In this document: piece by piece, positions 12,614 to 30,816 of the stretch
How positions within the stretch are numbered: the first letter of the stretch is position 1
How the letters are laid out: each line of letters opens with the position of its first letter
Source: Acidimicrobiales bacterium
GTDB taxonomy: Bacteria; Actinomycetota; Acidimicrobiia; Acidimicrobiales; CADCSY01
DNA length: 64,000 nucleotides
Assembly (NCBI GenBank): GCA_035540955.1
Contig: DATLFP010000009.1
Location: forward strand, 845 to 64,844
Direction of reading: 5' to 3'
The notes under the pieces: model-generated
Told to the model about the DNA's origin: nothing
The model's input: only the letters and a program-made list of their open reading frames with translations
Database searches by the model: none
Position numbers and translations under genes: made by a program

Positions 12614-13309
12614 TCAGCGCAGGGGGGCGAAGGGGGTCAGCGTGAGGTCGGCGGCGCGGGCGGCGGCGGCGACGGCGCCGTCGCACAGCACCGCCAGCTC
12701 CTGCTCGCGCTCGCGGCCGTACGACAGCGCCGCCGTCCCGCGGCCGGGGTGGCAGGCGATCTCGGTCCAGCCCGGCCCCACGCTGCGGATGACGCCGACC
12801 AGCGCGTCGACCGTGATCCCCTCGGGGTACGGGTCGCCGGTCCCGCTCTGGCCGTAGAACTCGCCGCGGTACACGAAGCCCGGCGTCACCTGGCGCACCG
12901 GGATCCCGAGCCGGCGCCCGGCGTCGCGCAGCAGCCGCCGTGCCGGGCCCTGACGGTGGACGTGCTGGTGCGAGTCGAGGTGGGTCGGCGGGCGGCCGAG
13001 GAGCGCGTCGAACGCGGCCAGCTGGGCGTCGATCTCGGCCGCCACCGCGTCGTCGTCGTCGGTGTCGACGACCGTGTACGCCGGCTCCCACCCTCCGTTG
13101 CCGTGGACCCACTCACCGAGGTCGAGGTGCAGCCCGACGCCGAGCTGCGGGTGGCGCCGGGCCAGGTCGGCGGCCGCCGGCACCGCCTCGGCCCGCACCA
13201 TCAGGCTGGTGCTCGTCACGATGCCACGGACGTACGCCTCGACCACGCCGGCGTTCACCCCGTCGCACAGGCCGAAGTCATCGGCGTTGACGACGACGTG
13301 GCGCGTCAC
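12614..13309 (-). CDS. ChbG/YdjC-family carbohydrate deacetylase
   Basis: GTG start at 13309 (GTGA overlap with the upstream stop). Motifs VNADDFGLCDGVN, TSTSLMV and LDSHQHVH are typical of YdjC-like proteins. Confidence 0.85.
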   Translation of the reverse strand: MTRHVVVNADDFGLCDGVNAGVVEAYVRGIVTSTSLMVRAEAVPAAADLARRHPQLGVGLHLDLGEWVHGNGGWEPAYTVVDTDDDDAVAAEIDAQLAAFDALLGRPPTHLDSHQHVHRQGPARRLLRDAGRRLGIPVRQVTPGFVYRGEFYGQSGTGDPYPEGITVDALVGVIRSVGPGWTEIACHPGRGTAALSYGREREQELAVLCDGAVAAAARAADLTLTPFAPLR

Positions 13310-15359: not shown

Positions 15360-16558
15360 GCCGACCGCCGCAGCTGGGCGGACCATCCGAGCATCTCGAG
15401 CAGCCTGCGCGCGAACGCGTCGGAGATCCTGTCAGGTGCGAGCGCGGCCCGGTGCTCGACGATCGCCCGTCGGAGCGGCGCGAGGTCCGTCGTGAGTGCA
15501 GCATGCATGGCGTCGGTCAGGTCCTGTCGGTCGGGTTGGTAGGAGAGCACGCCCGGCATCGCGGCCAGGCCGGCAAGGCCTCCGCGAGCGGCCACGAGCA
15601 CGGGCACGCCGAACGTGACAGCGAGCATCGCCGCGCCCGAGTTCAGCGCCTGGCGGTACGGCAGTACGGCGACGTCCGCGGCGCGGTAGTAGTACTGCAC
15701 GTCTTCGATCGGCACCCGGGCGATCTCGACGGTCGCGTCGAGGCGTCCCGCCGCCCACACGCGCAGCTCGGAGCCGAATCGCTCGTCCGGCGCGTTGCCG
15801 GCAATGACCAGTCGCGCCGGCCGGTCGAGGTCGCGGGACGCGAGTCGTTCGAACGCCGCGAGCAGCTCCTCCACGCCCTTGTACGGCTGCAACGAACCGA
15901 AGAGCAGGAAGACGACCTCGCCGGGCCTGACTCCGAGCTCGCTGCGGGCCTCGGCCCGGCTCACGTGATCGGGATAGGCGCCGGCGTAGGTGGGATGCGG
16001 CACGTGGAAGACCTTGTGCTCGGGGATGGGCGCGCGCTCCCGGAACAGGTCGACGGTGTCGTCGGTCATGACGTGCACGGCGTCTGCGGCGGCGATCAGC
16101 GCCTGCCGCAGGGCGATCTCGTGGTCGAGGTGGCGGGCGTCGTGCGGCAGCACGTTGTGGGCCGTCCACACCAGACGGTGACCCTGGCGCTGCACGGCGT
16201 CGAGCTGGTCGGAGAACGTCGCAACGAGATCGTCGGCCTCGGCCTCGCTCTCGGCCCCCGCCAGCACGTTCGCGATCCAGTGGAGGTGACAGACCACCCG
16301 ACCGGGCCACGGGAGCTCGGCGAGCTCACCGATGGTCTTGACCGGGAGCGTGCCGACGCCATGGTCGATGGTGCGTCCGTACAGCAGGGCTTGGAACGGG
16401 TTGGTGCGGGCCGGAGGTGTGTAGGCGAGCAGGACCGCGTGCGGGTCGTCGTCGTCGCCTCCGCCGAGCCGGTATCCCCTCGCCTCCAGCTCCATGGCCA
16501 GCTCGGCAACGGCGTCGAGGATGCTCTGCTCGTTCCGCAGCACGCGTCCGGTCCTCAT
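15356..16558 (-). CDS. GT4-like (GT-B fold, glycosyl transferases group 1) glycosyltransferase
   Basis: 400 aa. The C-terminal half reads FLLFGSLQPYKGVEELL...YYRAADVAVLPY...NSGAAMLAVTFGVPVL. It is the first gene of a 4-gene overlapping run. Confidence 0.75.
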   Translation of the reverse strand: MRTGRVLRNEQSILDAVAELAMELEARGYRLGGGDDDDPHAVLLAYTPPARTNPFQALLYGRTIDHGVGTLPVKTIGELAELPWPGRVVCHLHWIANVLAGAESEAEADDLVATFSDQLDAVQRQGHRLVWTAHNVLPHDARHLDHEIALRQALIAAADAVHVMTDDTVDLFRERAPIPEHKVFHVPHPTYAGAYPDHVSRAEARSELGVRPGEVVFLLFGSLQPYKGVEELLAAFERLASRDLDRPARLVIAGNAPDERFGSELRVWAAGRLDATVEIARVPIEDVQYYYRAADVAVLPYRQALNSGAAMLAVTFGVPVLVAARGGLAGLAAMPGVLSYQPDRQDLTDAMHAALTTDLAPLRRAIVEHRAALAPDRISDAFARRLLEMLGWSAQLRRSA

Positions 16559-16623
16559 GCTCGGACCTCACGCGGCCTCGTCGACCGGTCGGAAGGGGCG
16601 GGGTGCGATGCGATGATGGATCC

Positions 16624-17664
16624 ATGACGGACACGGCACCGACGTCGTCGAAGCCGCGCGTTGGCGTGGTCGGGTTCATCGGCTGGGGGAACTTCGGCGA
16701 CGAGCTGTTCATGCTCGTCCACCGGCAGTTCCTGTCGGCGGACTTCGACGTCGACCTGCTGCACGATCGCTTCGAGAAGCCGTACTTCAGCCGCCCGGTC
16801 GCCGAGGTCGTCGACGAGGTCGACGCCGTCGTGATCGGGGGCGGCGATCTCGTCATCCCGTGGCAGCTGTCGGAGCTCTACTGGCGCCGCGAGCTGTTGG
16901 AGCGCCCGGTGTTCCTGACGGGCATCGGCGTCCCCCGCTGGGGCGGCTACTCGCGTGCGGTGGTCGACACCATGAAGGAGTTCATCCAGCACCCCAACGT
17001 CCGCTACATCGGAGTCCGCGACGAGCCCAGTCGCGACTGGGTGCAACGGCACCTGCAGCCGAAGATCGAGATCGACTGTGCCCCCGACATCGTGTGCTCG
17101 CTCGATCTGCCGGCAGTCCAGCCGACCGACGAGCGGATCCTCGGCGTCGTCACCCGGAAGCGACGGAACGAGGGCGACGACTTCCTGTGGCTCGAGCGCC
17201 TCTGCGAGAAGGCGGCCCGGCTCGACTACCGCATCCACCACCTCGTGCTCGGAACCGGCGGCACCGGAGCGGCCGACGAGGCGGTCGAGGCCGAGTTCAG
17301 GTTCCCGGGGAAGCAGACGGTGCGCACCGACGATCTGCTCGAGCTGTGCCGCGCCGTCGGTCGCTGCACGGCGCTGGCCAGCATGAAGTTCCACGGCTCG
17401 GTCGTGGCCGCGATGTACGGCGTCCCGTCGCTCGTCCTCTCCCCGACGGACAAGAACCGCAACTTCATGAACATGATCGACCGCCCCGAGCTGCTCTCGA
17501 ACCTGTCCGACCCGCACCTCCCCGATCGCTTCTCGCCGTACCTTCCTCGCATCCCTCGCCAGACGCGAGACTGGCTCCGGGAGACCTCGACCGCGGCGAT
17601 GTTGCGGCTGGTCGAATCGATCCGCCAGGAAGTCGGCGCGGTGCGGCCTCATCGCGTGCACTGA
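16624..17664 (+). CDS. polysaccharide pyruvyl transferase family protein (CsaB/WcaK-like)
   Basis: ATG 16624 (MTDTAPTSSKPRVGVVGFIGWGNFGDELF). It has IGGGDL and a C-terminal MKFHGSVVAAMYGVPSL, typical of PS_pyruv_trans. It is the only plus-strand gene inside the locus. Confidence 0.75.
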   Translation: MTDTAPTSSKPRVGVVGFIGWGNFGDELFMLVHRQFLSADFDVDLLHDRFEKPYFSRPVAEVVDEVDAVVIGGGDLVIPWQLSELYWRRELLERPVFLTGIGVPRWGGYSRAVVDTMKEFIQHPNVRYIGVRDEPSRDWVQRHLQPKIEIDCAPDIVCSLDLPAVQPTDERILGVVTRKRRNEGDDFLWLERLCEKAARLDYRIHHLVLGTGGTGAADEAVEAEFRFPGKQTVRTDDLLELCRAVGRCTALASMKFHGSVVAAMYGVPSLVLSPTDKNRNFMNMIDRPELLSNLSDPHLPDRFSPYLPRIPRQTRDWLRETSTAAMLRLVESIRQEVGAVRPHRVH

Positions 17665-19994
17665 CGATCGTCGAGCAGCGACCGGTACAGGTCGAGGTAC
17701 CGCTCGGCGTTCCGGTCCCACGTGCGCTCCTGCTGGATCCACGTGCGCCCGGCGGTCCCGAGTCTCCGGCGTCGTGCAGGTGACGCGAGCAGCTCGTCGA
17801 TCCGACGTGCCAGGTCGCGTTCGTCCCCGGGGCGGAACAGCAGGCCCCGCTCCTCGGCGCCGACGATCTCCCGCAGCGACGGAAGGTCGGCGACGATCAT
17901 CGCGCGCTCGAGCGCGAGGGCCTCGTAGGGCTTCAGGGGCGTCACGTGATCGGCGGCGTAGTCGGGACGGCGGGGCACGACGAACACGTCGATGAGCGAG
18001 TAGTAGCGGTGGATGTCGCGGTGGTCGACCTCTCCGGTGAACACCACCCGATCACGGATCCCCAGCGACCGGGTCAGCCGCTCCATGCTCGGGCGGTCGG
18101 GTCCTTCTCCGACCAAGAGGCACCGGACGTCGGGGCGAGCGCGCGCCACCTCGGCGAAGCCACGCAGGAGCACGTCGTGCCCCTCGCGGTGCGAGATGTT
18201 GGAGATGTAGCCGACGATCGGGGCGTCGACGGCGATGCCCAGCCGCTGCTTCAGGTCGACGTCGGGACCGGCGACCTCGAAGACGCCGATGTCGACGGCG
18301 TTCGGCACCACGGTGATCTTCCACTCGGGCACTCCCCGCTCGACGAGCACGGCCGCCATCGCGTTGGAGATGGTCACGACGGCGTCGGCCTCGGCCATGC
18401 ATCGGTTCTCCTGGGCGATGCGGAGCCGGGTCCACTCGCGCGTCAGCTTGTCGTGCAGCCGGGGTGAGCCCCACAGGTGCTCGTGGAGCGAACGGACCTC
18501 GTACACCAGCGGGAGATCGAAGTGGCGGGCGAGGGCGATCCCCTTGAGCGCGAGCTCGTAGCCCCGAAACCCGGAAGCGGCGTGGATGAGGTCGGCGCCC
18601 CGCCGGCGGATCACGGCGGCGGTGGCGACGGCATCGAGGGTGAGGCGCCGGTCGAGGGGGAGCGAGGTGCTGTCGCCGGGCATCCGGAGGTGGACGTGAC
18701 GCACGCCTTCGACGTCGTGCTCGTCGGAGAAGTCGTCGCGGCCGTGACTGGCGGGGTACCCGAGCGGGGTGACGACGTACGGGGCGAGCCCGAGCTCACG
18801 CTGCGAGCGGACCACGTTGAGGTTCCGGATGGCCCCGCCCGTGCTCTCGAACGGGTAGCTCACCTTGAACAGATGGCACGGCTGGATCGTCTCGTGCGCG
18901 GTGGGGGCGGCCGCCGAGCGTCCCGGGACCTCGGGCAACCACTCGGTGTCCAGCTCCCGCAGGGTCCCGACGGCCCGCGTGTACGCCGCCGTCGCCTGCT
19001 CCGAGCCGGACACGAGTGCGAGCTCGCGCAGCGTCTCGGCGTGGTCCGAGAGCCGGCCCTCGGCGAGCTGGAGGCGGGCGAGCATCCGGAGGGAGTCAGC
19101 ATCGGCGTCGCCGCTGGCGATGCGCCGCCCCAGGGCGGGTCCGGTGATCGGCTCCACCACGGGCTGGCCGCCGAGGAAGAGGACGTCGTCCACCGCGCGG
19201 TCCCACGCCCGGAACTGCAGGCGGACCATCGTCGACCTGCCGGGCGGTTCGAGGAGACACGCAAAGGGGCTCACCGAGCCACCGGCGGTCGTCGGAAGGT
19301 ACCGGTACCAGCCGATGTCGTCGCGCGCCGAGCGCGCGAGGTGGCGGTACGGCCCGGGGATGGCCTGGCCCTCGCCGTCAACGAACTCGACGGCGACGAG
19401 CACGGCCCGCGCCGACGGTGTCTCGGTCCCGACGATCGTTCCCGACAGCAGGTACGAGCGGTCGTCGGTGACGGTGAGGTGCACCTCGATCGGCTCGTTG
19501 GTGGTGAGCTGCAGGGGGCCGGCCGACGCCCGGCGCTTCGCCCGCGAGGTCTTCTTCGCCACTGGGGGTGGCAACACCGGGCTGACCGACACGCGCGTGT
19601 CGGTGGGCCCCGGACGCTCGAGCAGGAACACCAGGCCGCCGACCTCGTCGAACGCCACCAGGCTGCAGGCGCTGTCGAGGTAGCGATGGAGCTCGTCGTA
19701 GTAGTCGAGCCACCAGAGCGCCCAGGTCGGCAGCACGAAGTACCGCGCCCCGCCCTCGCGGAGCAGCTCGAGGTGGGCGACGGCCTCGCCACCGGTCGCC
19801 GGGTTGTACCCGAGCCACGAGCCGTCGTCGGCCTGGGGGAAGTGCATGCCGACGGCGTCGCCGACGGCGAGCAAGGCGTCGTCGCCGCGGGTGACCACGA
19901 GCACGCGCTCGCCGGCGGGCACGGTGCGGCGGACGAGGTCGACGGTCCGCTCGCTGGCGCGCTCGGTGCGGGCGTCCTGCTCCAGGGCGGTCAT
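17649..19994 (-). CDS. multidomain glycosyltransferase: unassigned N-terminal module + unassigned beta-rich middle + C-terminal GT4 domain
   Basis: Start MTALEQD at 19994 (ATGA overlap). The C-terminal ~380 aa are GT4-like (GYISNISHREGHDVLL, EALALERAMIVADLPSLREIV). The N-terminal ~110 aa repeat the C-terminal module of the 23044..25164 protein. Confidence 0.8.
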   Translation of the reverse strand: MTALEQDARTERASERTVDLVRRTVPAGERVLVVTRGDDALLAVGDAVGMHFPQADDGSWLGYNPATGGEAVAHLELLREGGARYFVLPTWALWWLDYYDELHRYLDSACSLVAFDEVGGLVFLLERPGPTDTRVSVSPVLPPPVAKKTSRAKRRASAGPLQLTTNEPIEVHLTVTDDRSYLLSGTIVGTETPSARAVLVAVEFVDGEGQAIPGPYRHLARSARDDIGWYRYLPTTAGGSVSPFACLLEPPGRSTMVRLQFRAWDRAVDDVLFLGGQPVVEPITGPALGRRIASGDADADSLRMLARLQLAEGRLSDHAETLRELALVSGSEQATAAYTRAVGTLRELDTEWLPEVPGRSAAAPTAHETIQPCHLFKVSYPFESTGGAIRNLNVVRSQRELGLAPYVVTPLGYPASHGRDDFSDEHDVEGVRHVHLRMPGDSTSLPLDRRLTLDAVATAAVIRRRGADLIHAASGFRGYELALKGIALARHFDLPLVYEVRSLHEHLWGSPRLHDKLTREWTRLRIAQENRCMAEADAVVTISNAMAAVLVERGVPEWKITVVPNAVDIGVFEVAGPDVDLKQRLGIAVDAPIVGYISNISHREGHDVLLRGFAEVARARPDVRCLLVGEGPDRPSMERLTRSLGIRDRVVFTGEVDHRDIHRYYSLIDVFVVPRRPDYAADHVTPLKPYEALALERAMIVADLPSLREIVGAEERGLLFRPGDERDLARRIDELLASPARRRRLGTAGRTWIQQERTWDRNAERYLDLYRSLLDDRQCTR

Positions 19995-21124
19995 CGGGTC
20001 GCCTCGAGGACGGCTTCGAGCACGGCGCCGAGCACGCGATCGCTGTCGAGGTGCTCCTCCGCGATCCGACGGGCGGCGACCCGGTGGCGCTCCGGCTCGG
20101 CGAGGACGTCGGCCATGGCCGCGGCGGCGCCGTCCGCGGAGTCGAACCCCAACAGCCCGGCGTCGGCCGGAAGGTGCTCGCTCCATCCGGTGTCCTGGGC
20201 GACCACGGGACGCCCGCTCGCCAGGTAGCAGGCCGAGCGATCGCTGAACCACCCCGATCGGGACACGACGTAGCCCTCCTTGGCGATGGCGAGCTCACCG
20301 AGCGAGCCCTGGATGAACGACCGGTAGGCGTCGGGGTCGTGGGCAACCGCTTCCGGATCGAGCCATCGCCATCCGTGCTCTTCGAGCAGGGCGACGTCCT
20401 TGTGCTCGCCGGGGTGGATCCCGAGCGCGGGTAGCAGCGCCGCGGGGGCGAGGCGCGGGAGCTCGACGAACGCCCGCCACGCGTGGGCCTTCTGGCCGTG
20501 GCGCACCCCGTCGTGCTCGACCGACCCGTAGCCCCGCCAGCTGGCGACGGTGGTGAACGCCGGGGTCGTCACCGGCCCGGCTGCCGGCCAGGCGGTCAGC
20601 ACGACGGGGGGCAGCGTGGTGAGCCAGCGGCGCCCGTCCGTCGGGATGGTGTTCTCGGCGGCGCCGATGTTCAGCCCGACGGTCACGAAGTGCGTGTGGC
20701 CGTCGAAGCCCATGTCGATCCCGTCGGCCTGCCACAGCTGGGTGAACGCGGGGTCGAGGTCGAGATAGACGCGCGCCGGTGCCGGGTGCACGAGCTCGGA
20801 GTGGCGCAACATGCCGGCCACGTTGACGACGACGTCGGCGTGGCGGGCGAACGCCGCCAGCTGCGGGAACGGTACGCCCTCGGTCCGGCCTCGGCCGTCG
20901 ACCAGCGCGGCGCGATCGGCGAGTCCGAAGTCGGCCGCCACCGAACGGAAGTAGGACACGCTCGGTGGCCGGAGCACGTCGACCGGCTCCACCAGCACGA
21001 CGTCGTGGCCGAGCCGTCGCAGCCCGAGCACCCACTGGAGCACGGCCCAGGTGGCGCCGCCGTGGTGGGGCACCCCTGCAACCATGCCGGCGACGACGAT
21101 CCGCAGTCGGTCAGGGCGCAACAC
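19991..21124 (-). CDS. GT-B-like protein of unassigned family, paralogue 1
   Basis: It shares blocks with 21111..22232 and 25161..26330 (TTVASWRG, KAH..R.F..LPR, GWFSDRS..YLA.GRPV..QDTG). The start is taken as GTG 21124 by N-terminal alignment to the paralogues (LRIVVAGMVAG). The track start at 21235 would overlap the upstream gene by 125 nt. Confidence 0.65.
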   Translation of the reverse strand: MLRPDRLRIVVAGMVAGVPHHGGATWAVLQWVLGLRRLGHDVVLVEPVDVLRPPSVSYFRSVAADFGLADRAALVDGRGRTEGVPFPQLAAFARHADVVVNVAGMLRHSELVHPAPARVYLDLDPAFTQLWQADGIDMGFDGHTHFVTVGLNIGAAENTIPTDGRRWLTTLPPVVLTAWPAAGPVTTPAFTTVASWRGYGSVEHDGVRHGQKAHAWRAFVELPRLAPAALLPALGIHPGEHKDVALLEEHGWRWLDPEAVAHDPDAYRSFIQGSLGELAIAKEGYVVSRSGWFSDRSACYLASGRPVVAQDTGWSEHLPADAGLLGFDSADGAAAAMADVLAEPERHRVAARRIAEEHLDSDRVLGAVLEAVLEATR

Positions 21125-22232
21125 CGACCTCCTCGCAGAGCCGGCCGAGGACCCGCTTGGCGTCGAACCACTCGGCGGCGAGGGCGCGCGCCGCGCGGGC
21201 GTGGCGATCGACGTCGGCGGCGATGGCACGCGCACCGGCTACGGCCGCGTCGTCGTCGTCGAAGGCGAGGAGCCCTTCGCCCACGGGAAGCACCTCGGAG
21301 AAGCCGGTGTCCTGCACCAGGACCGGTCGGCCGGACGCGAGGTATCGCACGCTCCGGTCGCTGAACCAGCCGGTGCGCGGGTGCACGTACACCGCCTGGG
21401 CCACCGACAGCTCGGCGGGCGACGACTGGACGTAGGCGCGGAACGCGTGCGGGCTGCCGGCGGTGGCGGCCGGTTCGACCAGGTGCCAGCCGTTGCGCTC
21501 GAGCGCGGTGCGGTCGGCGTCGTCGCCGGGATGGATCTCGAGGCACAGCTCGAGGTCGGCCTCGACGCGGCGCGGGAGGTCGAGGAACCGCCGGAACTCG
21601 TGGGCCTTCGTGCCGAGGGTGTCGCCGCCGAACGCGACAGGGCCGTACGCGCCGCGCCATGACGCCACCGTCGTGAACCGGTCGCACGGCACGGGCGGCT
21701 GCACCGGCCAGTCGTCGAGCACGACGGGCTGCAGGGTGGGCCGCCAGGCGATGCCGTCGGTCGGGATGGCGCATCCCTTCGTGCCGATGAGGGCGCCGAC
21801 CGTGTACCAGTGGTCGTGGCGCTCGAGGGGTGCGGTGCCGTCGGCGTGCCACAGCTGGGTGTAGCCGGGATCCAGGTCGACGAACACCGTCGTGGCCGGA
21901 CCTTCGGTGAGCTTCGGGTCCGTCAGGTGGCCCGAGATGTTGAGCAGCAGCGCAGCGGAGGCGGCCAGGTCGACGAGCTGGGCGTGCGGCAGGCCGGCGG
22001 CGGTGCTGCCGTCGGCTCGCAGCAGCGTCGACCGGCACGTGAGCCCGAAGTCGCCCATCACCTCGGCGAACCAGTCCTCGGCGTGGGCATCGGCACCCGG
22101 CGCCAGCTGCTCCACCACGTGCACGTCGAAGCCCAGCCGGGCGAGGCCGACGGCCCAGCTGAGTCGGGTCCACGCCGCCCCGCCGTTCCCCGGCTTGTTG
22201 GCCACGGCGCCGGCCACCAGCGCGGTCGTCAT
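21111..22232 (-). CDS. GT-B-like protein of unassigned family, paralogue 2
   Basis: Start MTTALVAGAVANKPGNGGAAW at 22232 (ATGA overlap with the methyltransferase stop). It has the same conserved blocks as paralogues 1 and 3. Confidence 0.65.
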   Translation of the reverse strand: MTTALVAGAVANKPGNGGAAWTRLSWAVGLARLGFDVHVVEQLAPGADAHAEDWFAEVMGDFGLTCRSTLLRADGSTAAGLPHAQLVDLAASAALLLNISGHLTDPKLTEGPATTVFVDLDPGYTQLWHADGTAPLERHDHWYTVGALIGTKGCAIPTDGIAWRPTLQPVVLDDWPVQPPVPCDRFTTVASWRGAYGPVAFGGDTLGTKAHEFRRFLDLPRRVEADLELCLEIHPGDDADRTALERNGWHLVEPAATAGSPHAFRAYVQSSPAELSVAQAVYVHPRTGWFSDRSVRYLASGRPVLVQDTGFSEVLPVGEGLLAFDDDDAAVAGARAIAADVDRHARAARALAAEWFDAKRVLGRLCEEVGVAP

Positions 22233-23047
22233 CGCCGGACCGTCCTCGCCATGGTGGTGAGCCGGGGGAGCTGAACCTGTCGGTTGCCCGTTCCGGTGCC
22301 GACGACGCAGATCCCGATGCGATCGAGGTCGACGACGACGCGCACCGAGGGGTGGCGACGGAGCGCGGCCCATGCCCGCTCCATCCCGTCGGACCACGCG
22401 ATGTCGTCGAACACCACGACCGCGGGGTCGGTGAGGTGGGGGACGATCTGGTCGAAGTACTCCTGGGTGGCGGCCTCGTCGTGGTGGCCGTCGATGAAGG
22501 CCAGGTCGAACGGTCCGGCCCGGTCGAGGACGTCGGCGAGCGTCGAGCGGAACAGCCCGGGGATCACGTCGACCGAGTGCAGACCCAGTTCCGAGAGGTG
22601 CTGCCGAGCGCGAGCCGCCAGCGTCGGCGCTCCCTCGAGCGTGGTGAGGGTGCCGCCGCCGTTCAGCTGGGCGCCGGCGGCGAGATAGGCCCCCGAGACG
22701 CCGAGGCACGTCCCGAGCTCGAGGATCCGTGCCGGGCGGAGCTCGCGGGCGAGCGCGAGGAGCACGAGCGCCCACGGCCCCTTCTTGCTGCGACGGGCGG
22801 CGACCTCACCGAGGACCATCGGCTTGGTGACGCCGCGGGCGTTCTGGAGCGCGGTGTCGATCTCCTCGGTCGACGCGTCGAGCCGGGCGCGCAGCGCCTC
22901 GATGGCGTCGACCCACCGGCGCTCGTCTGGCGTCAGCTCGTCGGTGACGGTGCGAGCCACCGCGGCGCCGAGCGCGCGCACGACGGGGTCGTCGTCGGCG
23001 CGCAGCGCCGCGAGGGCGTCGGGCAGGGCCGGGGACGAGAGCGTCAT
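22229..23047 (-). CDS. class I SAM-dependent methyltransferase (O-methyltransferase family 3-like)
   Basis: Start MTLSSPALP at 23047 (ATGA overlap). It has the motif I segment ILELGTCLGVSGAYLA and a DLAFIDGHHD segment. Confidence 0.75.
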   Translation of the reverse strand: MTLSSPALPDALAALRADDDPVVRALGAAVARTVTDELTPDERRWVDAIEALRARLDASTEEIDTALQNARGVTKPMVLGEVAARRSKKGPWALVLLALARELRPARILELGTCLGVSGAYLAAGAQLNGGGTLTTLEGAPTLAARARQHLSELGLHSVDVIPGLFRSTLADVLDRAGPFDLAFIDGHHDEAATQEYFDQIVPHLTDPAVVVFDDIAWSDGMERAWAALRRHPSVRVVVDLDRIGICVVGTGTGNRQVQLPRLTTMARTVRR

Positions 23048-25164
23048 CGGACCTCCGAGAGGGCGGCGACGGGAACGAACCGGGGCGCGGCCGGTCTGCC
23101 GTCGTCCGGCGCGGGCGCGACGACGCCGAGGCGGAAGACGGCGCCGACCTCGTCCTGGAAGGCGACCAGCGTGGCCGAGGTCTCGAGGTGGCGACGGAGC
23201 CCGTCGTAGAACGTGAGCCACCAAAGGCCCGAGGCCGGTACCGCGAAGTACTCGGCGCCGCGCCCGTGCAGGTCGACGACCTGGGCCAGGGCCTCGTCGC
23301 TGTCGGCGGGATGATGACCGGCGTACACGCCGTCGTCGACCTGGGGCACGTGCCAGCCCCGGCGACCGCCGAGGTCGACGAGGCGGGGGTCGCCACGGCT
23401 GACGACGGCGACGGTGGACCCTTCGGGCACGGCGGCGACGACCAGCGCGCGCATCCGCTCGACCAGCGACTCGCCCGGCCCGGTGCCGCGCCAGTCACGG
23501 CGGAAGCGCTCCGCCAGGGCGGCGGTGTCGTCCGGACGCGGGACGGCCGGCGGAGCCGACCCCGCGAGGGCCCGGCACAGCTCGTCGATCCGCGCCGCCA
23601 CCGGCGCCGGTGGCGCCGCCAGGCCGACGTCGTCGGCGGGCTGCACCTCGCGCAGCGGGCGGTTGCACGACGGGTCGGGATCCAACCCGACGAAGGCCAA
23701 GCAGCGGTCGGCGACGGCCGCGCCGTCACGGCAGAGCTCGTCGTAGCCGACCCGCAGCACCCGGTCGGCGCCCAGGGCCCGCTCGAGCGCGAGCCCGGCC
23801 TCGACCGCCGCCACCCACGACCGCCACGCCGAGTCGGGCGTGTGGAACGCGCCGTCGGTCGTCGGCGAGCCGGCGAGGGCCCGGACCAGGTCGGCGGGAT
23901 CGCGCACGACGTGGACGAACCCGGCGTCGGGGAAGAGCGTGGCGAGGGCGTGGGCGGCGGGCAGCAGCTCGGTGCCGGCGACGACGGGTCGCCGTCCGAG
24001 CGGACCTGTTGTCACCGAGAGCAGCGCCGCCGCCAGATGGTCGCGAAACCCAGTGGGCGCGGGCGCCGCCGGCTCGGCGGCGCGCCGCTCGATGTCGCCG
24101 GCGGCGCGCGCCAGCCAGCGTCCGTCGTGCACCAGCTCGAGCTGACGATGTTGTCCGAGCGCCAGAGCCACCATCGCGTGTCCGGACCGCGGAGCCCCCA
24201 CGACGAACACGGGCCGGCTGCTCCGACCTCCGCTGGCGCGGGGGGCGCCGACGGACGCCGGGCGCGGGCCACGCTGGACGACGCGAGCCAGCGAGCGCTC
24301 GGGCCGTCCGACGCGATCGAGGTCGGGTCCGGCGAGATGACGGAGGTAGGGAGGCGCGGTGGTCAGCCACGGGCGGAGGTCGGGCGCCTTGCCCGCGGCG
24401 ACGCGCGCGGCGTTGTGGCGCGCCCGAGCCGCCAGCACCGACTGCACTCCCTGGCGGGCCGGCGAGCCCAGTGCGGTGGTCGAGCCCAACGTGAGCGAGC
24501 CCGGCCGCTTGCGACGGAAGTAGCCGAAGTGGTCGGCGTTGACGACGCGCGCGACGTGGGCGGCGCGGCGAAGGAACTCGGCATCGCCGGAGAAGCGCAT
24601 GCCGCTCGAGAAGCCGCCGAGGCGACCGACCAGCGACCCGGTGACGATGCTCGTCGGGTGCAGGAGGGGGAACGCGGTGGGCCGCTCGCACAGCACCGCG
24701 TTCACGTCGAGCGGATAGGTGACCGGGACGATGTCGCCCTCCGTCACGAGGACCCGGATCTCGTGGCTGCCGACGAGGTCGGCCCCCGTGCTCTCAGCCG
24801 CGGCGAGGAGCACCTCGAGCCGGTCGGGGGCGGACCAGTCGTCGGCGTCCTGGAAGAGGTAGCCGTCGAACTCGGTCCGGTCGATCACGGCCTGGACGAG
24901 GCGGTACGGCCCGCCGTTGTCGTCTGCGGCCAGCAGCGTCACCTCGGGGAACGCACGCACGACGTCGATCGGGGGCTCCTGGGAGCCGTCGTCGATCACG
25001 ACGATGGCGTCGGGCGGCCTCGTCTGGTCGAGAAGCGACTCGATGGCCTGGCCGAGCCACTGCTCGCACTGGAAGTGCGGCACCAGTGCGCAGACCGACG
25101 AACGCCCGTCGAGCGGCGTCGTGCTCACGCTCATGATTCGCTCGCTCGTTCCTCGCTCGCTCAT
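23044..25164 (-). CDS. trifunctional-looking protein: GT2 domain - sulfotransferase domain - unassigned C-terminal module
   Basis: 706 aa. The N-terminus is GT2 (VIDDGSQEP, LFQDADDW). The middle has a PAPS-binding-like 5-prime-PSB loop FVVGAPRSGHAM and a 3-prime-PB-like FVHVVRDPADLV. The last ~120 aa match the N-terminus of 17649..19994. Confidence 0.8.
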   Translation of the reverse strand: MSERGTSERIMSVSTTPLDGRSSVCALVPHFQCEQWLGQAIESLLDQTRPPDAIVVIDDGSQEPPIDVVRAFPEVTLLAADDNGGPYRLVQAVIDRTEFDGYLFQDADDWSAPDRLEVLLAAAESTGADLVGSHEIRVLVTEGDIVPVTYPLDVNAVLCERPTAFPLLHPTSIVTGSLVGRLGGFSSGMRFSGDAEFLRRAAHVARVVNADHFGYFRRKRPGSLTLGSTTALGSPARQGVQSVLAARARHNAARVAAGKAPDLRPWLTTAPPYLRHLAGPDLDRVGRPERSLARVVQRGPRPASVGAPRASGGRSSRPVFVVGAPRSGHAMVALALGQHRQLELVHDGRWLARAAGDIERRAAEPAAPAPTGFRDHLAAALLSVTTGPLGRRPVVAGTELLPAAHALATLFPDAGFVHVVRDPADLVRALAGSPTTDGAFHTPDSAWRSWVAAVEAGLALERALGADRVLRVGYDELCRDGAAVADRCLAFVGLDPDPSCNRPLREVQPADDVGLAAPPAPVAARIDELCRALAGSAPPAVPRPDDTAALAERFRRDWRGTGPGESLVERMRALVVAAVPEGSTVAVVSRGDPRLVDLGGRRGWHVPQVDDGVYAGHHPADSDEALAQVVDLHGRGAEYFAVPASGLWWLTFYDGLRRHLETSATLVAFQDEVGAVFRLGVVAPAPDDGRPAAPRFVPVAALSEVR

Positions 25165-26330
25165 GGCTGCACCCCCAGGTCGTCGAGCATGCGACCGAGC
25201 ACGAGGTCCGAGTCGAAGTGCTCGCGGGCGATCGCGGCGGCAGCCTTGGCGTGGCGATCCCAGTCGCGCTCGATCTCGAGCAGCGCGTCGGCCGCCTCCT
25301 CGACGGTGCGGTACGCGAACAGCCCTTCACCGGTGGGTAGGACCTCGCCGAAGGCGGTGTCCTGGGTGACGACGGGCCGGCCGGCGGCGAGGTAGGTCGC
25401 CGACCGGTCCGAGAACCACCCCGTCTTCAGGCGCACGTTCTGGTCCTTGGCGACGGTGACCTCGCCGCGGGACGCGGTGATGTAGTCGCGGTACCGGTCG
25501 GCGTCGGCCGACACCTCGACCGCCGGTCGGACCGCGAAGCCCCGGCGCTCGAGGCGCTCCCGGTCGCGCGCCATGAAACCGGCGAGGGCGAGCTCGATCG
25601 GGAGCCGCGTGCGCCGGGGCAGCTCGAGCACCTTGGCCCACTCGGTGTGCTTGCTCCAGGTGTAGGGCTCGCCGTCGAGCTCGACCGTGCGCCACGACTG
25701 GCGCCAGTTGCCGATCGTCGTCCACGTCGGTCCGGCGGGCACCTCGCGCTCCCACAGGTCGAGCACGACCGGCTGCCGGGTGGGGTGGAACCGGAACCGA
25801 GCGTCGACGGGGAGGTTGCAGCCCGGTCGTCCGTAGTTCTCGCCGAAGGTGAAGAAGGCGCAGTGCGGCTCGAGATAGTCGACGGTCTCGGCCCGGCCCT
25901 CGTGCAGCTCGACCTGCACCTGCACCGGATCGGTCTCCAGGTAGACGAGCCGACCGCCGGCGGCGTGCTCCGGACGCGGCGTGGTCCCACCGTGGAGGTT
26001 CACGACCACGGCGGCCGAACGGTACAGGTCGTCGAGGCTGTCGGCCACCGGGCCCACGGCGCGGCCGTCGTCGTGGAGCGCCTGGAACGCCCACCGGTCG
26101 GCGAGCCCGAACCGCTCGAGCGTGCGTCCGATGAACCCGGCCGCCGCGTCGGTGCCCGGGTCATCGGCCGAGCGGCAGAACGCCGAGGGGTTGATGCCGT
26201 GCGCCTCGACGTAGAACGCGTCACACCCGAGCCGCTCCAGGCCGAGCAGGTAGTGGGCCGTCTGCCACACGACGCCGGCCACGGGCATCTTGGTCATCAT
26301 CCCGAGCACGACGACGCGGGGCCGGCTCAT
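25161..26330 (-). CDS. GT-B-like protein of unassigned family, paralogue 3
   Basis: 389 aa with MSRPRVVVLGMMTKMPVAGVVW, TTIGNWRQSW and GWFSDRSATYLAAGRPVVTQDTAF. ATGA overlaps occur at both ends. Confidence 0.65.
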   Translation of the reverse strand: MSRPRVVVLGMMTKMPVAGVVWQTAHYLLGLERLGCDAFYVEAHGINPSAFCRSADDPGTDAAAGFIGRTLERFGLADRWAFQALHDDGRAVGPVADSLDDLYRSAAVVVNLHGGTTPRPEHAAGGRLVYLETDPVQVQVELHEGRAETVDYLEPHCAFFTFGENYGRPGCNLPVDARFRFHPTRQPVVLDLWEREVPAGPTWTTIGNWRQSWRTVELDGEPYTWSKHTEWAKVLELPRRTRLPIELALAGFMARDRERLERRGFAVRPAVEVSADADRYRDYITASRGEVTVAKDQNVRLKTGWFSDRSATYLAAGRPVVTQDTAFGEVLPTGEGLFAYRTVEEAADALLEIERDWDRHAKAAAAIAREHFDSDLVLGRMLDDLGVQP

Positions 26331-28393
26331 CGCCGCGCCCCCCGAGGGGTGGCCCCCGGGCGCATCCGGCGCAGCAGGCGGCTGCCCCGCTCGGGGGCGA
26401 CGGGCCGCGGCTGGCGCCGCTCGGGTCGGTCGGCGGGGTCGAGGGGATCCGTGAGGTCGACCACCGGCTCGGGGTCACGCCGGAGCGTTGGTGTCGGCTC
26501 CCGCTCCGGGGTCGGTCGGGACGAGGTCGCGGCGGCGGGCACCTCGTTGCCGTCGGCGAGCGCCGGGGTGAAGAACCCGATCCGCCGGCCGGTCTGGGCC
26601 TCGTGCAGGAGCCGGTAGAGCCCGTCGGCGCGCAACAGCGTGCCGTGGTCTCCGCGCTCGATCACCTCGCCATCGTTGATGACGAGGATCTGGTTGGCGT
26701 TGCGAACGGTGGACAGGCGGTGGGCGACCATGAAGGTGGTGCGCCCCTGCATGAGCCGCCCCAACGCTTCGAGGATCACCGCCTCGGTGCGGGAGTCGAT
26801 CGACGACGTGGGCTCGTCGAGCACGAGGATCGGTGCGTCCTTCAGGAAGGCGCGGGCGACGGAGATCCGCTGACGTTCCCCGCCCGAGAGCTTGGCGCCG
26901 CGCTCGCCGAGCTTGGCCCGGTACTTGCCGGGGAGCTTCATGATGAAGTCGTGGGCGTTGGCCGCCTTCGCCGCCTCCACCACCTCGTCCTTGGACGCAT
27001 CGGGACGGCCGTATCGGATGTTGTCCTCGATGGTTCCGGTGAACAGCAGAGGTTCCTGCATCACCATGCTGATGTTCCTGCGGAGCGACTCGAAGGTGAG
27101 GTCCCGCACGTCGACGCCGTCAACCAGCACCCGACCCTCGTGCGGGTCGAAGAAGCGCGGCAGGAGGTTCATGAGCGTGCTCTTGCCGGCGCCGGTCGGG
27201 CCGACGATCGCCACCGACTCGCCCGCGCCGACCTCGAAGGAGATGCCGCGCAACGTGCCCTCGCGACCCTCGTAGCTGAAGCTGACGTGCTCGAAGGTCA
27301 CCGCGCCGGCGGGGTTCTCCAGGGCCCGGGCGTCGGGCCTCTCGACCACATCGGGCTGGGTGTCGAGCAGCTCCATCGCCATCTCGAAGCCGATCAGCTG
27401 CTCCTGGATCGAGTTCATCGTCGTGCTGATCGTCTCGAGAGGCGTGTATACCGAGCGGATGTACGACAGGAGCACCAGCAGCTCACCCACGCTGAGGTTG
27501 CCGCTGCGCACCTGGTAGGCGCCGAGGCCGAGGACGGCGGCGGTGCCGCACGCGGTGATCAGGTTGACGACGAGGGTGAACACCGTCTGCTTCACCGTCA
27601 CCTTCACCCGAGCCGCGACTGCCTCCTCACCCTGCTCGCGGAACCTGTGGTACTCGTCGCGCTCCCGGTTGAACGCCACGATCACCCGGAGCATCTGCAT
27701 CGCCTCGTGCACCATGTGCAGCGAGCGGATCTCGAGCCCCTTCACCCTCCGGACCTCGGGTCCGATCTTCGAGCCGTAGTAGCCGGTCGAGTAGTAGATG
27801 AACGGCACCACCGCCAGCGACAGCAGGGCCACGGGCGCGTTCAGCCGGAAGGCGATCCAGAACATGCCGACGAGGGTCAGCGCGCTCTGCACGAGTGGGA
27901 ACGCCGACACGGTGACGCCGCCGACCGACGCCGCTTGGCCGTTGATGCGCCCCATGAACTCACCGGTGAGTCGCTCGTCGTGGTACGCGAACGAGAGGCG
28001 CTGGACGTGCTGGAACAGCTCGCTGCGGAAGTCGAGCACCATCCGCATGTCGATCCGGGTGTTCACGTAGTCGTTGATCACCTGGAGCCCGTTCATCACC
28101 AGCGTGACCACGAGCAGCAGGCCGACCACCACCCCCACCTGGCCCCAGATCGAGTCGCCGACGAGGTCGCGCAGCGGCCCCGGCAGCGGCTTGTCGCCGA
28201 GGACGCTGTCGATCATGAGCGCCACCGGCCACGGCTCGAGCAGGGCCACGCCGGCCCCCATTCCCATGAGCAGCATGGAGAGGGCGACCAGCCACCGGTG
28301 CGGGCGCAGGTACGGCAGCGTCAGCGGCCAGGCCTTCAGGTTCTCCCTGATGCTGATCTTGCGCTTCGTCTCCGTGGTGGTCTCGTCGCTCAC
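26327..28393 (-). CDS. fused TMD-NBD ABC exporter (MsbA/PglK-like) with a Pro/Arg-rich C-terminal tail
   Basis: GTG 28393, preceded by AGGAGCGGA and in a GTGA overlap with the upstream stop. It has six-helix exporter-type TMD features, Walker A GPTGAGKSTL, signature LSGGERQR and Walker B LVLDEPTSSID. The track ORF (to 30013) is an out-of-gene extension. Confidence 0.9.
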   Translation of the reverse strand: MSDETTTETKRKISIRENLKAWPLTLPYLRPHRWLVALSMLLMGMGAGVALLEPWPVALMIDSVLGDKPLPGPLRDLVGDSIWGQVGVVVGLLLVVTLVMNGLQVINDYVNTRIDMRMVLDFRSELFQHVQRLSFAYHDERLTGEFMGRINGQAASVGGVTVSAFPLVQSALTLVGMFWIAFRLNAPVALLSLAVVPFIYYSTGYYGSKIGPEVRRVKGLEIRSLHMVHEAMQMLRVIVAFNRERDEYHRFREQGEEAVAARVKVTVKQTVFTLVVNLITACGTAAVLGLGAYQVRSGNLSVGELLVLLSYIRSVYTPLETISTTMNSIQEQLIGFEMAMELLDTQPDVVERPDARALENPAGAVTFEHVSFSYEGREGTLRGISFEVGAGESVAIVGPTGAGKSTLMNLLPRFFDPHEGRVLVDGVDVRDLTFESLRRNISMVMQEPLLFTGTIEDNIRYGRPDASKDEVVEAAKAANAHDFIMKLPGKYRAKLGERGAKLSGGERQRISVARAFLKDAPILVLDEPTSSIDSRTEAVILEALGRLMQGRTTFMVAHRLSTVRNANQILVINDGEVIERGDHGTLLRADGLYRLLHEAQTGRRIGFFTPALADGNEVPAAATSSRPTPEREPTPTLRRDPEPVVDLTDPLDPADRPERRQPRPVAPERGSRLLRRMRPGATPRGARR

Positions 28394-30816
28394 TCCGCTC
28401 CTCGCCGGATGCATGCGGGCAGGGTCACTCGACTGCGGAACCATCCCCAGCCGAGGTCGATGCCGACGAGCGCGAGCGCGGCGGCGCCGAGGGAGGGGAG
28501 GACGACGCCGACGGCCGCCGCCAGCACGGTGGCGACGGCAACCCGCACCCGGCGCACCCGGGGGCGGACGCGGATCTGGACCGACCCGATCGGATGGCCG
28601 CTCGAGACCAGCTCGCCCGCCATCAGCAGCGACAGCGCCACCTCGGCGTCGTGGTCCTCCCACCCGGTCGGGGGCGCCACCCGCATCCCCGTGCGCCGCA
28701 GGTGTTCGATGACGGCGGCGGTGATGCCGGCTCGGGGTCGGTCGGCGGGCAGGAGGACCACGCCGCCGGAACGGCGCTGGGGCGGGCCGGGCAGCCGCTC
28801 GGCGGCCGGGAGATCGCGGCGGGCGAGCGGCGCCTCCCGGGTCCGGCCCCAGGTCCGGACCAGGGGCTGCAGCAGATGGTGAACGGCCACCGCCAGGCGG
28901 AACCGCACTTGACCGGTGACGAGTCGGCGGGGTGGCGTCGCCCGCCACGCGTCGATCCCGCCCAGCAGCGCCAGCCCGACGACGGCCACGAGCGCGGGGA
29001 GGAGCAGCCAACGAGAGAGCAGCCCGAGCGGTGCGGTGGCGAGGGCCCCAGTGGCGACGGGCACGCCGACCTGGTGCGCGACGTCGAGCCCGTGGCCGCC
29101 GCCCCGATACACGCTCTGGTAGGCGGCGTCGCCGTAGATGCCGCGGTAGATGCGGGCCCGCCCGGTCGGCGGCACGAGGGAGTTGTAGATCCGTCCCCGC
29201 CACCGCGCCGTCCCGATCGAGCTGAAGCGATCGGGATGGCGGGCCTCGACCAGCGCCTCGGCCCGGCCGTAGCCCCGCTGCTGACGCAGGTAGCGGCGCA
29301 GCCCCGGACGGCGGTGGTGCCACACGAGGGCGGCGGGGTGGAAGCCGATCGTCCACCTGCGGTCGAGGACCTTCCAGCACAGGTCGACGTCGTCGCCGGC
29401 GGCGGTGTAGATCGGGTCGAAGCCGCCGACCTCCTCGAGCACCTGCTTCCAGAACGCCATGTTGCAGCCGGGGACGTGCTCGGCGCGGTCGTCGGTGGTC
29501 AGGACGTGGACCGGGCCTCCCGGCGACTGCGCCACGACCTGGGCCCCGACCGGGTCGTCGAGCGGCGGCACGTTCGGGCCGCCGGCGCCACCGACGTCGC
29601 GACCGTCGAAGCCCAGCGCGAGGTAGTACGGCCACTCGGGAGTCGGATAGGCGTCGGAATCGAGGTAGGCGACGATCTCGCCGCGCGCGGCGCGGAACCC
29701 CTCGTTGCGGGCGACCGACAGCCCGCCGTGCGGGAGGCGCAGGACCCGGGCTCGGGGGTGGCGCTCGGCGAGCGCGGCGGTGTCGTCGGTCGATCCGTCG
29801 TCGACCACGAGGATGTCGAGGTCGGGGTAGTCGAGCGCGCACGTGTGGCGGAGGCACTCGTCGATGGTCTCGGCCGCGTTGTAGGCGCAGATCACGACGC
29901 TCATCGACGGCCAGTCGTCGTCGAGATCGGCGACGGTCATGGCGTTCCACCGCGCAGCCATGTCGAGCGCCGGTCTCGGCGTGCGGTCGGCGCGGGTGAG
30001 GCCGAAGTTCCACCCCTCCACCGCGTGGTCACCGACCCACCACTCGTCGGTCCACGAGAAGAGGAATGTGCCGGCGACGCCGCGCTCGAGCGCCGTCTCC
30101 AGCTGCCAGTCCACGGCATCGGCCTGGCGGTGCTCGCCCGCCTCCGTCGACCCGGCGTCGAGGCCGAGCTCACCCAGCACCAGGGGCCGGTCGCCGGCGA
30201 GGTTGTGGAGCCGCGTCAGGTACTGGCGGAAGTCGCGGCGGCGCTCGAGGAACAGGTTGAACGTGAGGAAGTCGAGATCGTCGAGCGGCAGGTACTCGGC
30301 GGTCGGGTAGTTGGCGAAGGTGACGAGTCGGTCGGGGTCCTCCTCGCGCACGACGTCGACCAGCTCGCTGATGACGCCGGCGACCTGCTCGGTGCCCATC
30401 CACCGGATGACGTCGGCGGGGATCTCGTTGCCGAGGGAGAGGGCGAACACCTGGTCGGCGCCGGCGAGGTGGCGCGCCGTGTGGCGGACCTCCTCGCGGG
30501 CGTCGCGGACCATGCGGCGCACGGCGCGGCGGGAGGAGCCGACGAGGTAGCGCCAGTCGGGCCAGAAGACGCCGGCGAACACTCGCAGGTTCCAGTCGGC
30601 GGCGACCTCGAGGAGGTCGTCGGGGGGCGGGGTGTAGGTGCGCACGACGGTGAAGCCCGCCTCGTTCATCGCCGCCATGTCGAGCTTGAGCTGCTGGCGC
30701 TCCGGGAACCGCGCTCCGTCGGGGTCGCGGGGACGGAAGGTGCCGTAGCCGACGCCGCGGACGGGGAAGCGCTCGCCGCCCTGCTCGAACTGCTTGCCAT
30801 CGACGCGGATCGGCAT
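28390..30816 (-). CDS. GH clan-A-like TIM-barrel domain fused to a synthase-like GT2 domain and a C-terminal membrane region
   Basis: ATG 30816, preceded by GAGGAGGAGCGAGG. The N-terminus has LSLGNEIP (acid/base NE) and VLGELGLD. The middle is GT2 (VVICAYNAAETI, VVDDGSTD, LDSDAY, GCNMAF, RQQRGYG resembling Q-x-x-R-W). The C-terminus has several hydrophobic helices. Confidence 0.8.
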   Translation of the reverse strand: MPIRVDGKQFEQGGERFPVRGVGYGTFRPRDPDGARFPERQQLKLDMAAMNEAGFTVVRTYTPPPDDLLEVAADWNLRVFAGVFWPDWRYLVGSSRRAVRRMVRDAREEVRHTARHLAGADQVFALSLGNEIPADVIRWMGTEQVAGVISELVDVVREEDPDRLVTFANYPTAEYLPLDDLDFLTFNLFLERRRDFRQYLTRLHNLAGDRPLVLGELGLDAGSTEAGEHRQADAVDWQLETALERGVAGTFLFSWTDEWWVGDHAVEGWNFGLTRADRTPRPALDMAARWNAMTVADLDDDWPSMSVVICAYNAAETIDECLRHTCALDYPDLDILVVDDGSTDDTAALAERHPRARVLRLPHGGLSVARNEGFRAARGEIVAYLDSDAYPTPEWPYYLALGFDGRDVGGAGGPNVPPLDDPVGAQVVAQSPGGPVHVLTTDDRAEHVPGCNMAFWKQVLEEVGGFDPIYTAAGDDVDLCWKVLDRRWTIGFHPAALVWHHRRPGLRRYLRQQRGYGRAEALVEARHPDRFSSIGTARWRGRIYNSLVPPTGRARIYRGIYGDAAYQSVYRGGGHGLDVAHQVGVPVATGALATAPLGLLSRWLLLPALVAVVGLALLGGIDAWRATPPRRLVTGQVRFRLAVAVHHLLQPLVRTWGRTREAPLARRDLPAAERLPGPPQRRSGGVVLLPADRPRAGITAAVIEHLRRTGMRVAPPTGWEDHDAEVALSLLMAGELVSSGHPIGSVQIRVRPRVRRVRVAVATVLAAAVGVVLPSLGAAALALVGIDLGWGWFRSRVTLPACIRRGAE

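Follow-up and report, generated by a model that had tools for sequence, protein, structure and literature searches.

Three GT-B-like paralogues of an Acidimicrobiales gene cluster belong to a large unnamed family with a conserved cross-phylum locus

The closest described systems to the locus presented here are of two kinds. In the E. coli O9a pathway, the glycosyltransferase family 4 (GT4) enzymes WbdA, WbdB and WbdC are combined with the kinase-methyltransferase WbdD and the Wzm/Wzt transporter, giving a terminally modified glycan whose export depends on an ATP-binding cassette (ABC) transporter. In the second kind an N-acetylglucosamine (GlcNAc) transferase is paired with a de-N-acetylase, as in MshA/MshB, BshA/BshB, PIG-A/PIG-L and HpnI/HpnK; HpnK is a YdjC-family protein, and ChbG acts on phosphorylated chitobiose. 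The DNA analysed here (the window) is a stretch of 64,000 nt from an Acidimicrobiales bacterium (GenBank assembly GCA_035540955.1, contig DATLFP010000009.1, positions 845 to 64,844, forward strand). It encodes three proteins, denoted A, B and C, which an earlier sequence-only reading took for paralogues of a GT-B-like family within one operon. They belong to a large unnamed GT-B family which has its own motifs, an architecture of four orthogroups (T1 to T4, with A typed as T1, B as T2 and C as T4) and a conserved cross-phylum locus.

The window resembles the O9a-type pathway in having several GT-B enzymes, with a kinase and methyltransferases in the locus and an ABC exporter encoded together with the glycosyltransferases, here an MsbA-like gene in the same coupled operon. 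It differs in the nature of the exporter, an MsbA/PglK-like protein of the ABC_membrane type with fused transmembrane (TMD) and nucleotide-binding (NBD) domains; no Wzm/Wzt (ABC-2 type) transporter was found in the cluster and its flanks, and the cluster has neither a WecA-type primer gene nor Wzx/Wzy. Where the O9a-type system has a carbohydrate-binding module, there is a GT-B domain, of type T4, next to the NBD or fused with it, and genes for sulfation and de-N-acetylation are present in addition. As in the transferase/de-N-acetylase pairs, a GT-B (or GT2) transferase lies beside a carbohydrate de-N-acetylase of the YdjC family; unlike in those pairs, a kinase and two or three further paralogous GT-B proteins are added, and the resemblance of the T1, YdjC and kinase trio to MshA/MshB-type pairs and to the logic of ChbG is one of analogy only. 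The sulfotransferase/kinase/methyltransferase exopolysaccharide cluster wps-1 of Actinoplanes was considered and set aside as a different system, which is Wzx/Wzy-dependent and without the T family. In the literature, no published description of the family or the cassette was found; searches on Glyco_trans_1_2 gave only Acinetobacter OC-locus papers, and those on gene clusters of YdjC, aminoglycoside phosphotransferase and glycosyltransferase gave none.

Proteins A, B and C are full-length paralogues, with a similarity far beyond chance. In pairwise, full-length BLASTP, A and B share 47% identity (E 1e-84), while C shares 36% with both A (E 1e-51) and B (E 3e-56); the open reading frames (ORFs) and these end-to-end alignments bear out the three paralogues and the positions first given for them. 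The glycine-rich N-terminus and the C-terminal block GWFSDRSxxYLAxGRPVxxQDT are found in all three, as the sequence-only reading stated. The central blocks DLDPxxTQLW, TTVASWRG and KAHxxRxFxxLPR, also listed there as shared, are exact in A and B only; in C they have diverged to ETDPVQVQVE, TTIGNWRQ and SKHTEWAKVLELPR, which in an alignment of 217 family copies is a systematic difference between T1–T3 and T4. The T proteins are acidic and lack transmembrane segments.

The AlphaFold2 models of B and C have a GT-B fold, with predicted local distance difference test scores (pLDDT) of 93.7 and 94.3, respectively, and a predicted template modelling score (pTM) of 0.93 for each. Foldseek comparison with the PDB returned 142 chains for B and 164 for C at E<=0.001, and the 50 best-ranked rows of each are all GT-B-fold proteins, so the predicted structures agree with the GT-B-like character first proposed. 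Retaining GT4-type enzymes (ManT 7qsg, tll1591, HepE, BshA, PimA and MshA) rank highest, and the alpha-glucosyltransferase of phage T4 is also among the matches; all are distant, with template modelling (TM) scores of ~0.6, 9-16% identity and E values from 3e-11 to 1e-6. The likeness to CgeB/Glyco_trans_1_2 that had been noted in the C-terminal block was recovered as the sole Pfam signal, a match of the last ~90 residues to PF13524 which stays below the cut-off of 25 bits in A (22.0), B (20.0) and C (19.7). Within the family it is seen at E<=0.01 in 40 of 55 members, some above the cut-off (for example P0121, 34.9 bits). The likeness to this CgeB/YkvP spore-maturation type consists of S-x-R...YLAxGxPV in the C-terminal ~90 residues, and no other hidden Markov model (HMM) touches the three proteins; it covers, though, part of the C-domain, whereas the N-domain and central motifs of the T family match no model. 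No NCBIfam family matches A, B or C at E<=1, none of the 55 members matches PF00534, three match PF13692 at E ~0.003, under its cut-off, and sequence profile searches of the PDB gave only a marginal WbaZ-1 fragment (E 0.02-0.05) and no solved relative. The sequence-only reading could not place the family, and indeed no curated family or solved relative in Pfam, NCBIfam or the PDB claims the three proteins. They stand at the fringe of Pfam Glyco_trans_1_2, and in structure the retaining GT4 enzymes come closest to them. The available tests, namely the Pfam HMMs and the EX7E motif, which in GT4 enzymes contacts the nucleotide sugar, place the three proteins outside GT4.

Like ManT, PimA, BshA, MshA and HepE, the T proteins have a two-Rossmann GT-B fold with a glycine-rich β1–α1 loop, an Arg/Lys pair after the first strand of the C-domain and an A-x-G-x-P-V strand near the C-terminus; the GT4 enzymes, too, are soluble or peripheral and act on membrane-bound or small acceptors, and ManT, of the mycobacterial methylmannose polysaccharide pathway, works alongside sugar O-methyltransferases. 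In contrast with GT4 enzymes, besides the lack of PF00534 and the remote TM score, the T family has G-W-F-S-D-R-S in the place of EX7E, a β-hairpin inserted between R193 and K209 (numbering of B), and invariant D121, H139 and E274 of its own. The complete invariant set comprises G18, W21, N98, D121-P122, H139, W192, S271, E274, G288-W-x-S291-x-R293, Y297-L-A-x-G301 and Q307-x-T309, and H211 is invariant as well. R193 and K209, located where GT4 enzymes bind the donor diphosphate, are conserved in T1–T3, and R193 in about half of T4. D121, H139, E274, S291, R293, Q307 and T309 form an identical polar and charged set in T1–T4, while position 19, beside the invariant glycine of the β1–α1 loop, is A, E, H and V in T1 to T4, and positions 208, 279 and 282 are also type-specific. 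Since an invariant polar set is combined with few type-specific positions, the pattern fits distinct specificities with a common chemistry. Related but distinct transfer steps, as originally suggested, are in keeping with these residues; catalytic activity and the use of UDP-sugars are predicted. A pseudo-enzyme among the copies was considered and is not supported, the invariant residues being retained in every type.

The family copies were extracted from the best 78 of at least 589 loci in species-representative genomes. By tblastn, nine of these loci have one copy, 14 have two, 43 have three and 12 have four. The 217 extracted copies were aligned and clustered by average linkage on corrected distances, and fall into four ancient orthogroups: T1 (70 copies, including A), T2 (64, including B), T3 (53) and T4 (15, including C). 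Mean distances are 0.60-0.76 within groups, 0.96-1.03 among T1, T2 and T3, and ~1.33 to T4. A type is never present twice in the same locus. T1, T2 and T3 occur together in 50 of the 78 loci (exactly this trio in 39, all four types in 11), and the order on the strand is almost always T3, T2, T1. Recent local duplication is ruled out, as the copies group by type and not by locus; the three copies of the window, while paralogues in an operon as first read, are not a local triplication and represent three of the four orthogroups. An HMM scan of the window in six frames found no T3 or fourth copy, its extra matches being to an unrelated domain (X, see below). The layout is T4 ... T2 T1, with the position of T3 upstream of T2 taken by the Methyltransf_24 and GT2-sulfotransferase genes; locus L004 shares this pattern. 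In five loci from Binatia, Chloroflexota, Margulisiibacteriota and a 'delta proteobacterium' (L050, L054, L076, L077 and L078), the large GT2 and ABC genes are followed by two to four family copies that fall outside T1–T4, and further orthogroups therefore exist in the family.

With a profile of A, B and C, the matches listed make up more than 6,600 clusters at 90% identity, almost all named 'hypothetical protein' and a few 'glycosyltransferase'. Among 50%-identity representatives there are 4,979 matches at E<=1e-3 and 1,160 at E<=1e-30. The carriers of the 78 loci include, within the actinobacteria, Solirubrobacterales/Thermoleophilia and Acidimicrobiia, and beyond them Planctomycetota, Verrucomicrobiota, Acidobacteriota, Gemmatimonadota, Chloroflexota, Binatia, Margulisiibacteriota and a 'delta proteobacterium'. 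Some cassette loci are labelled Bifidobacteriaceae (L015) or Akkermansia muciniphila (L017 and L055). As the layout of L015 is that of L011 (Vicinamibacterales), with nearly equal tblastn scores, mis-binned or mislabelled contigs are suggested rather than true gut-bacterial carriers.

The neighbours of the family were surveyed in the same 78 loci by unbiased clustering of the other nearby ORFs with Pfam analysis of representatives, and by tblastn. The most frequent are an APH-family kinase (63 loci) and a YdjC deacetylase (46), followed by a GT2 with a C-terminal extension, often in one to three tandem copies (38), a stand-alone Sulfotransfer_3 protein (22), an MsbA-like ABC exporter (~20) and a small class-I methyltransferase (18). 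Less common are a GT4 (13), a homologue of the 808-residue GT2 of the window (9), a DegT aminotransferase (8) and a DUF4185-like protein (7); a nucleotidyltransferase is not among the recurrent neighbours. If genes less than 400 bp apart are counted as adjacent, T1 is followed by the kinase in 35 loci (and in 5 more inverted), T2 by T1 in 33, the kinase by YdjC in 27 and T3 by T2 in 24; a sulfotransferase precedes T3 in 15, a methyltransferase follows it in 15, and the ABC gene precedes T4 in 8, the adjacency of large GT2 and ABC being seen in other loci as well. The consensus map reads [large GT2, ABC, T4] ... [GT4, GT2, sulfotransferase] T3 [methyltransferase] [n copies of GT2] T2 [DUF4185] T1, kinase, YdjC, and contigs with precomputed annotation agree with it. 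The order T3, T2, T1, APH kinase, YdjC deacetylase recurs in at least nine phylum-level lineages.

The locus thus consists of two modules, one of large GT2, MsbA-like ABC and T4, and one of (T3), T2, T1, APH and YdjC, and between the fixed genes are variable inserts encoding GT2, GT4, sulfotransferase, methyltransferase or pyruvyltransferase. The sequence-only reading had described the copies as interleaved with a methyltransferase and a sulfotransferase; both are there, the latter as a fusion of GT2 and Sulfotransfer_3. These genes are recurrent in the wider comparison but variable, and the constant partners are the kinase and YdjC, which lie at 12614-14190, outside the interval that was then considered. 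The joint treatment of the three copies holds with respect to their shared operon, but C belongs to a separate module of ABC, T4 and GT2/sulfotransferase, whose parts are often fused. A forest-soil contig (L080) is collinear with the window through GT2, ABC, T4, GT2/sulfotransferase, Methyltransf_24 and two family members. In the window itself the link of T1 to the kinase is broken by four genes, for an X-GT4 protein, a CsaB-like protein on the opposite strand, a GT4 and a WecB-type epimerase, after which the kinase and YdjC genes follow.

Fusion proteins were surveyed in the 150 best 50%-identity representatives, many of them long, using Pfam and typing by HMMs of T1–T4. Seven join the ABC protein (TMD-NBD) to T4, in part with GT2 (P0123, P0125, P0126, P0132, P0140, P0149 and P0168). 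Fusions of T4 with GT2, with or without X and sulfotransferase, are many, and P0128, P0150 and P0159 correspond to C joined to the next gene of the window. T4 is also fused to a sulfotransferase (P0137), to YdjC (P0179) and to an FkbM methyltransferase (P0161); T1 is fused to APH (P0134 and P0172) and to X-GT4 (P0124, equivalent to A joined to its downstream neighbour in the window, 791 bits), and P0121 is a tandem fusion of T2 and T1. Natural fusions with each type of partner argue that the T domains work in immediate contact with the products of their gene neighbours.

Domain X, mentioned above, is an unannotated domain of ~112 residues (consensus VAVVSKGDEELLELGGRRAWHFPQDEDGEYAGHHPADSAEAIAHLEALRARGAEYLVVPATALWWLDHYEELRRHLE) for which there is no Pfam model. 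It occurs twice in the window, at the C-terminus of the GT2-sulfotransferase and near the N-terminus (aa 15-125) of the 781-residue GT4 protein. Elsewhere it recurs, often in tandem, on the partner GT2, GT4 and sulfotransferase enzymes and on long T4 and T1 fusions, but T proteins that stand alone are always without it. Its role may lie in docking or regulation.

The genes of the window cluster are given in Table 1. The G+C content of the window is ~72%, which makes mechanical ORF lists noisy; genes were called from codon-position G+C and direct translation, and this confirmed A, B and C on the minus strand with their ends as first read. The junctions from 30816 down to 17649 are 4-nt ATGA/GTGA overlaps, that of B and A being a 14-nt overlap. 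Because all junctions overlap, the eight genes, including A, B and C, form one translationally coupled operon, in line with the original claim of a single operon. The cluster extends from ~11674 to 30816, and its flanks are unrelated housekeeping genes.

Table 1. Genes of the cluster and other features mentioned in the text, in window positions (aa, amino acids; TM, transmembrane; SAM, S-adenosylmethionine).
Feature	Positions	Strand	Details
Large GT2, operon gene 1	28390-30816	-	808 aa; GT2 domain aa 303-513; two TM-like segments
MsbA-like half-size ABC exporter (TMD+NBD)	26327-28393	-	Pfam ABC_membrane + ABC_tran; NCBIfam MsbA-related 434 bits
Protein C	25161-26330	-	389 aa; translation; typed T4, exporter-coupled type; AlphaFold2 model
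GT2 + Sulfotransfer_3 + 112-aa X domain fusion protein	23044-25164	-	Pfam; X domain aa 558-669
X domain of the GT2-sulfotransferase	23128-23463	-	
Methyltransf_24 SAM-dependent methyltransferase	22229-23047	-	Pfam; equivalent gene position in L080
Protein B	21111-22232	-	373 aa; translation; typed T2; AlphaFold2 model
Protein A	19991-21124	-	377 aa; translation; typed T1
X domain + unknown region + GT4, last gene of coupled operon	17649-19994	-	781 aa
X domain of the GT4 protein	19620-19952	-	
CsaB-like polysaccharide pyruvyl transferase	16666-17664	+	Opposite strand; divides cluster into two transcription units
GT4 glycosyltransferase, accessory	15356-16543	-	395 aa
Non-hydrolysing UDP-GlcNAc 2-epimerase (WecB type), accessory	14253-15359	-	Pfam Epimerase_2 8e-107; TIGR00236 323 bits, above cut-off
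APH-family kinase	13306-14190	-	Pfam APH
YdjC-family (ChbG/HpnK-like) carbohydrate de-N-acetylase	12614-13309	-	Pfam YdjC 5.7e-47
GT2-like protein at cluster edge	11674-12552	+	
PIN-domain gene	32451-32870	-	
Small ORF	32867-33142	-	91 aa

We consider it probable, if by no means certain, that A, B and C are soluble GT-B transferase-like proteins which form the skeleton of a modular, cross-phylum glycan-assembly locus, with one sugar per T protein. On the cytoplasmic side, each T protein would transfer a specific sugar to a membrane-associated glycoconjugate under construction, and the adjoining or fused enzyme would then decorate the residue just added. YdjC would remove the N-acetyl group from the product of T1 and the APH kinase would phosphorylate it, while the products of T3 and T4 would be methylated, sulfated or extended by GT2. 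T4 is envisaged to act in physical contact with the ABC exporter, which would move the finished glycan across the membrane.

Several points weigh against this reading. The catalytic activity of the T proteins is predicted for every member. The two glutamate positions of EX7E correspond to the invariant G288 and the variable residue 296, as anchored by a local hhalign with a local GT4 alignment that spans 13 columns only (LAsGRPV..QDTG; the global mode gave a meaningless alignment), and in view of the absent motif and the lack of a GT4 HMM match, binding of nucleoside diphosphate (NDP) sugars cannot be assumed. Even for CgeB, of the nearest named family, activity as a UDP-sugar protein O-glycosyltransferase is putative, and the assay is weak (PMC13577073). 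A polyprenyl-phosphate priming phosphoglycosyl transferase (Glycos_transf_4/Bac_transf) is absent from the window cluster (11674-30816 and flanks). The proposed order of T1, YdjC and kinase follows analogy only, the orthogroups come from average-linkage clustering instead of a full phylogeny, some of the 'fusions' could be read-throughs of gene calling, and the best 78 loci are contigs of metagenome-assembled genomes without exception.

The same observations can be read differently, with the T proteins as non-catalytic GT-B scaffolds or specificity subunits that dock the real enzymes, possibly as a T3/T2/T1 hetero-oligomer; GtfB beside GtfA and Alg14 beside Alg13 are precedents. Such a role would account for the finding of each type just once in a locus and with a fixed gene order, for the fusion of the T domain to the exporter NBD and to partner enzymes of nearly all kinds, for the natural T2-T1 tandem, for the bona fide GT2 and GT4 enzymes that are always nearby and for the missing EX7E. 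We nevertheless regard it as unlikely: the four types keep an identical set of invariant polar and charged residues together with the glycine-rich loop, as is typical of an active site, whereas known pairs of scaffold paralogues include a partner that has lost them.

It is also possible, but seems quite improbable, that the T proteins are GT-B transferases with a phospho-activated donor (a sugar-1-phosphate made by the APH kinase) or that they transfer a phospho-group in the manner of TagF. Kinases are known to feed such steps, as maltokinase does GlgE, and NahK and AmgK make anomeric phosphates. The kinase is the tightest partner in the locus and is even fused to T1, the recurrent neighbours are without a nucleotidyltransferase, EX7E is replaced by G-W-F-S-D-R-S, and H139 and H211 are invariant. 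Yet the kinase adjoins T1 only, and not T2, T3 or T4; it resembles, weakly, kinases acting on hydroxyls of antibiotics and small molecules, with no specific similarity to anomeric sugar kinases; the UDP-GlcNAc 2-epimerase found in the window and in several other loci implies that UDP-sugar pools are used; and the nearest folds are all NDP-sugar enzymes. That the T proteins are just very divergent ordinary GT4 enzymes, their triple occurrence being normal for polysaccharide loci, where several GT4 genes are common, we think very improbable despite the GT4 enzymes among the best structural matches and the few members that touch PF13692, since PF00534 and EX7E are absent, those matches stand at TM ~0.6 and 11-16% identity, and the invariant motifs, four orthogroups and cross-phylum synteny with kinase and YdjC are unlike generic GT4 genes.

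Returning to the T proteins as transferases of one sugar each, we tentatively put forward a wider proposal, which we think more doubtful than not. T1–T4 would constitute a new, EX7E-less glycosyltransferase family which, with the kinase, YdjC and the exporter-tethered T4, builds the conserved phosphorylated amino-sugar core of a sulfated, methylated envelope glycoconjugate, that is, an unrecognised pathway common to uncultured soil Actinomycetota, Planctomycetota, Verrucomicrobiota, Acidobacteriota, Gemmatimonadota, Chloroflexota and others. A radical version, in which the donors are sugar phosphates made by the kinase rather than nucleotide sugars, strikes us as a long shot. New glycosyltransferase families are not rare; what stands out here is the size of the family, its rigid synteny, the tethering to an exporter and the association with sulfation in soil phyla other than the cyanobacteria, which according to one recent paper are almost the only known source of bacterial sulfated polysaccharides (PMC13390465). 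If the proposal is right, thousands of 'hypothetical' proteins would be united in a single definable glycosyltransferase family whose four subtypes differ in function, and the signature T3, T2, T1, kinase, YdjC plus ABC-T4 would flag an uncharacterised pathway for a decorated, apparently often sulfated cell-surface glycan in dominant and poorly cultured soil lineages. It would also provide a GT-B family that binds its donor without EX7E and a natural glycosyltransferase physically tethered to an MsbA-type exporter, and the window would serve as an entry point to a widespread envelope-glycan pathway.

Against the PDB, the APH kinase finds generic relatives only (macrolide, viomycin and capreomycin kinases), as does the sulfotransferase domain (the CurM sulfotransferase and TPST), so that these comparisons do not indicate their substrates; no gene for the synthesis of 3'-phosphoadenosine-5'-phosphosulfate is present in the cluster or flanks. 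The YdjC protein of the window matches the chitooligosaccharide deacetylase 7vi8 (6e-22), and the HpnK model over aa 3-64 only. In the large GT2, which is always upstream of the ABC exporter, the N-terminal ~300 residues have a weak GH2/beta-galactosidase similarity (NCBIfam GalB, aa 43-196), weak matches to Glyco_hydro_2_C are seen in homologues elsewhere, and the TM-like segments are at aa 595-613 and 756-774.

The WecB-type epimerase and the CsaB-like pyruvyl transferase co-occur in the window, and are not conserved in most related loci. In Firmicutes, a WecB-type epimerase and CsaB together make pyruvylated N-acetylmannosamine on the secondary cell-wall polymers that anchor S-layer homology (SLH) domain proteins; the pair may hint at the nature of the glycan of the window. 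Just beyond the nitroreductase and metallo-beta-lactamase (MBL) genes flanking the cluster, a small ORF lies ahead of a PIN-domain gene and overlaps it, and the two are probably a toxin-antitoxin pair of the VapBC type.

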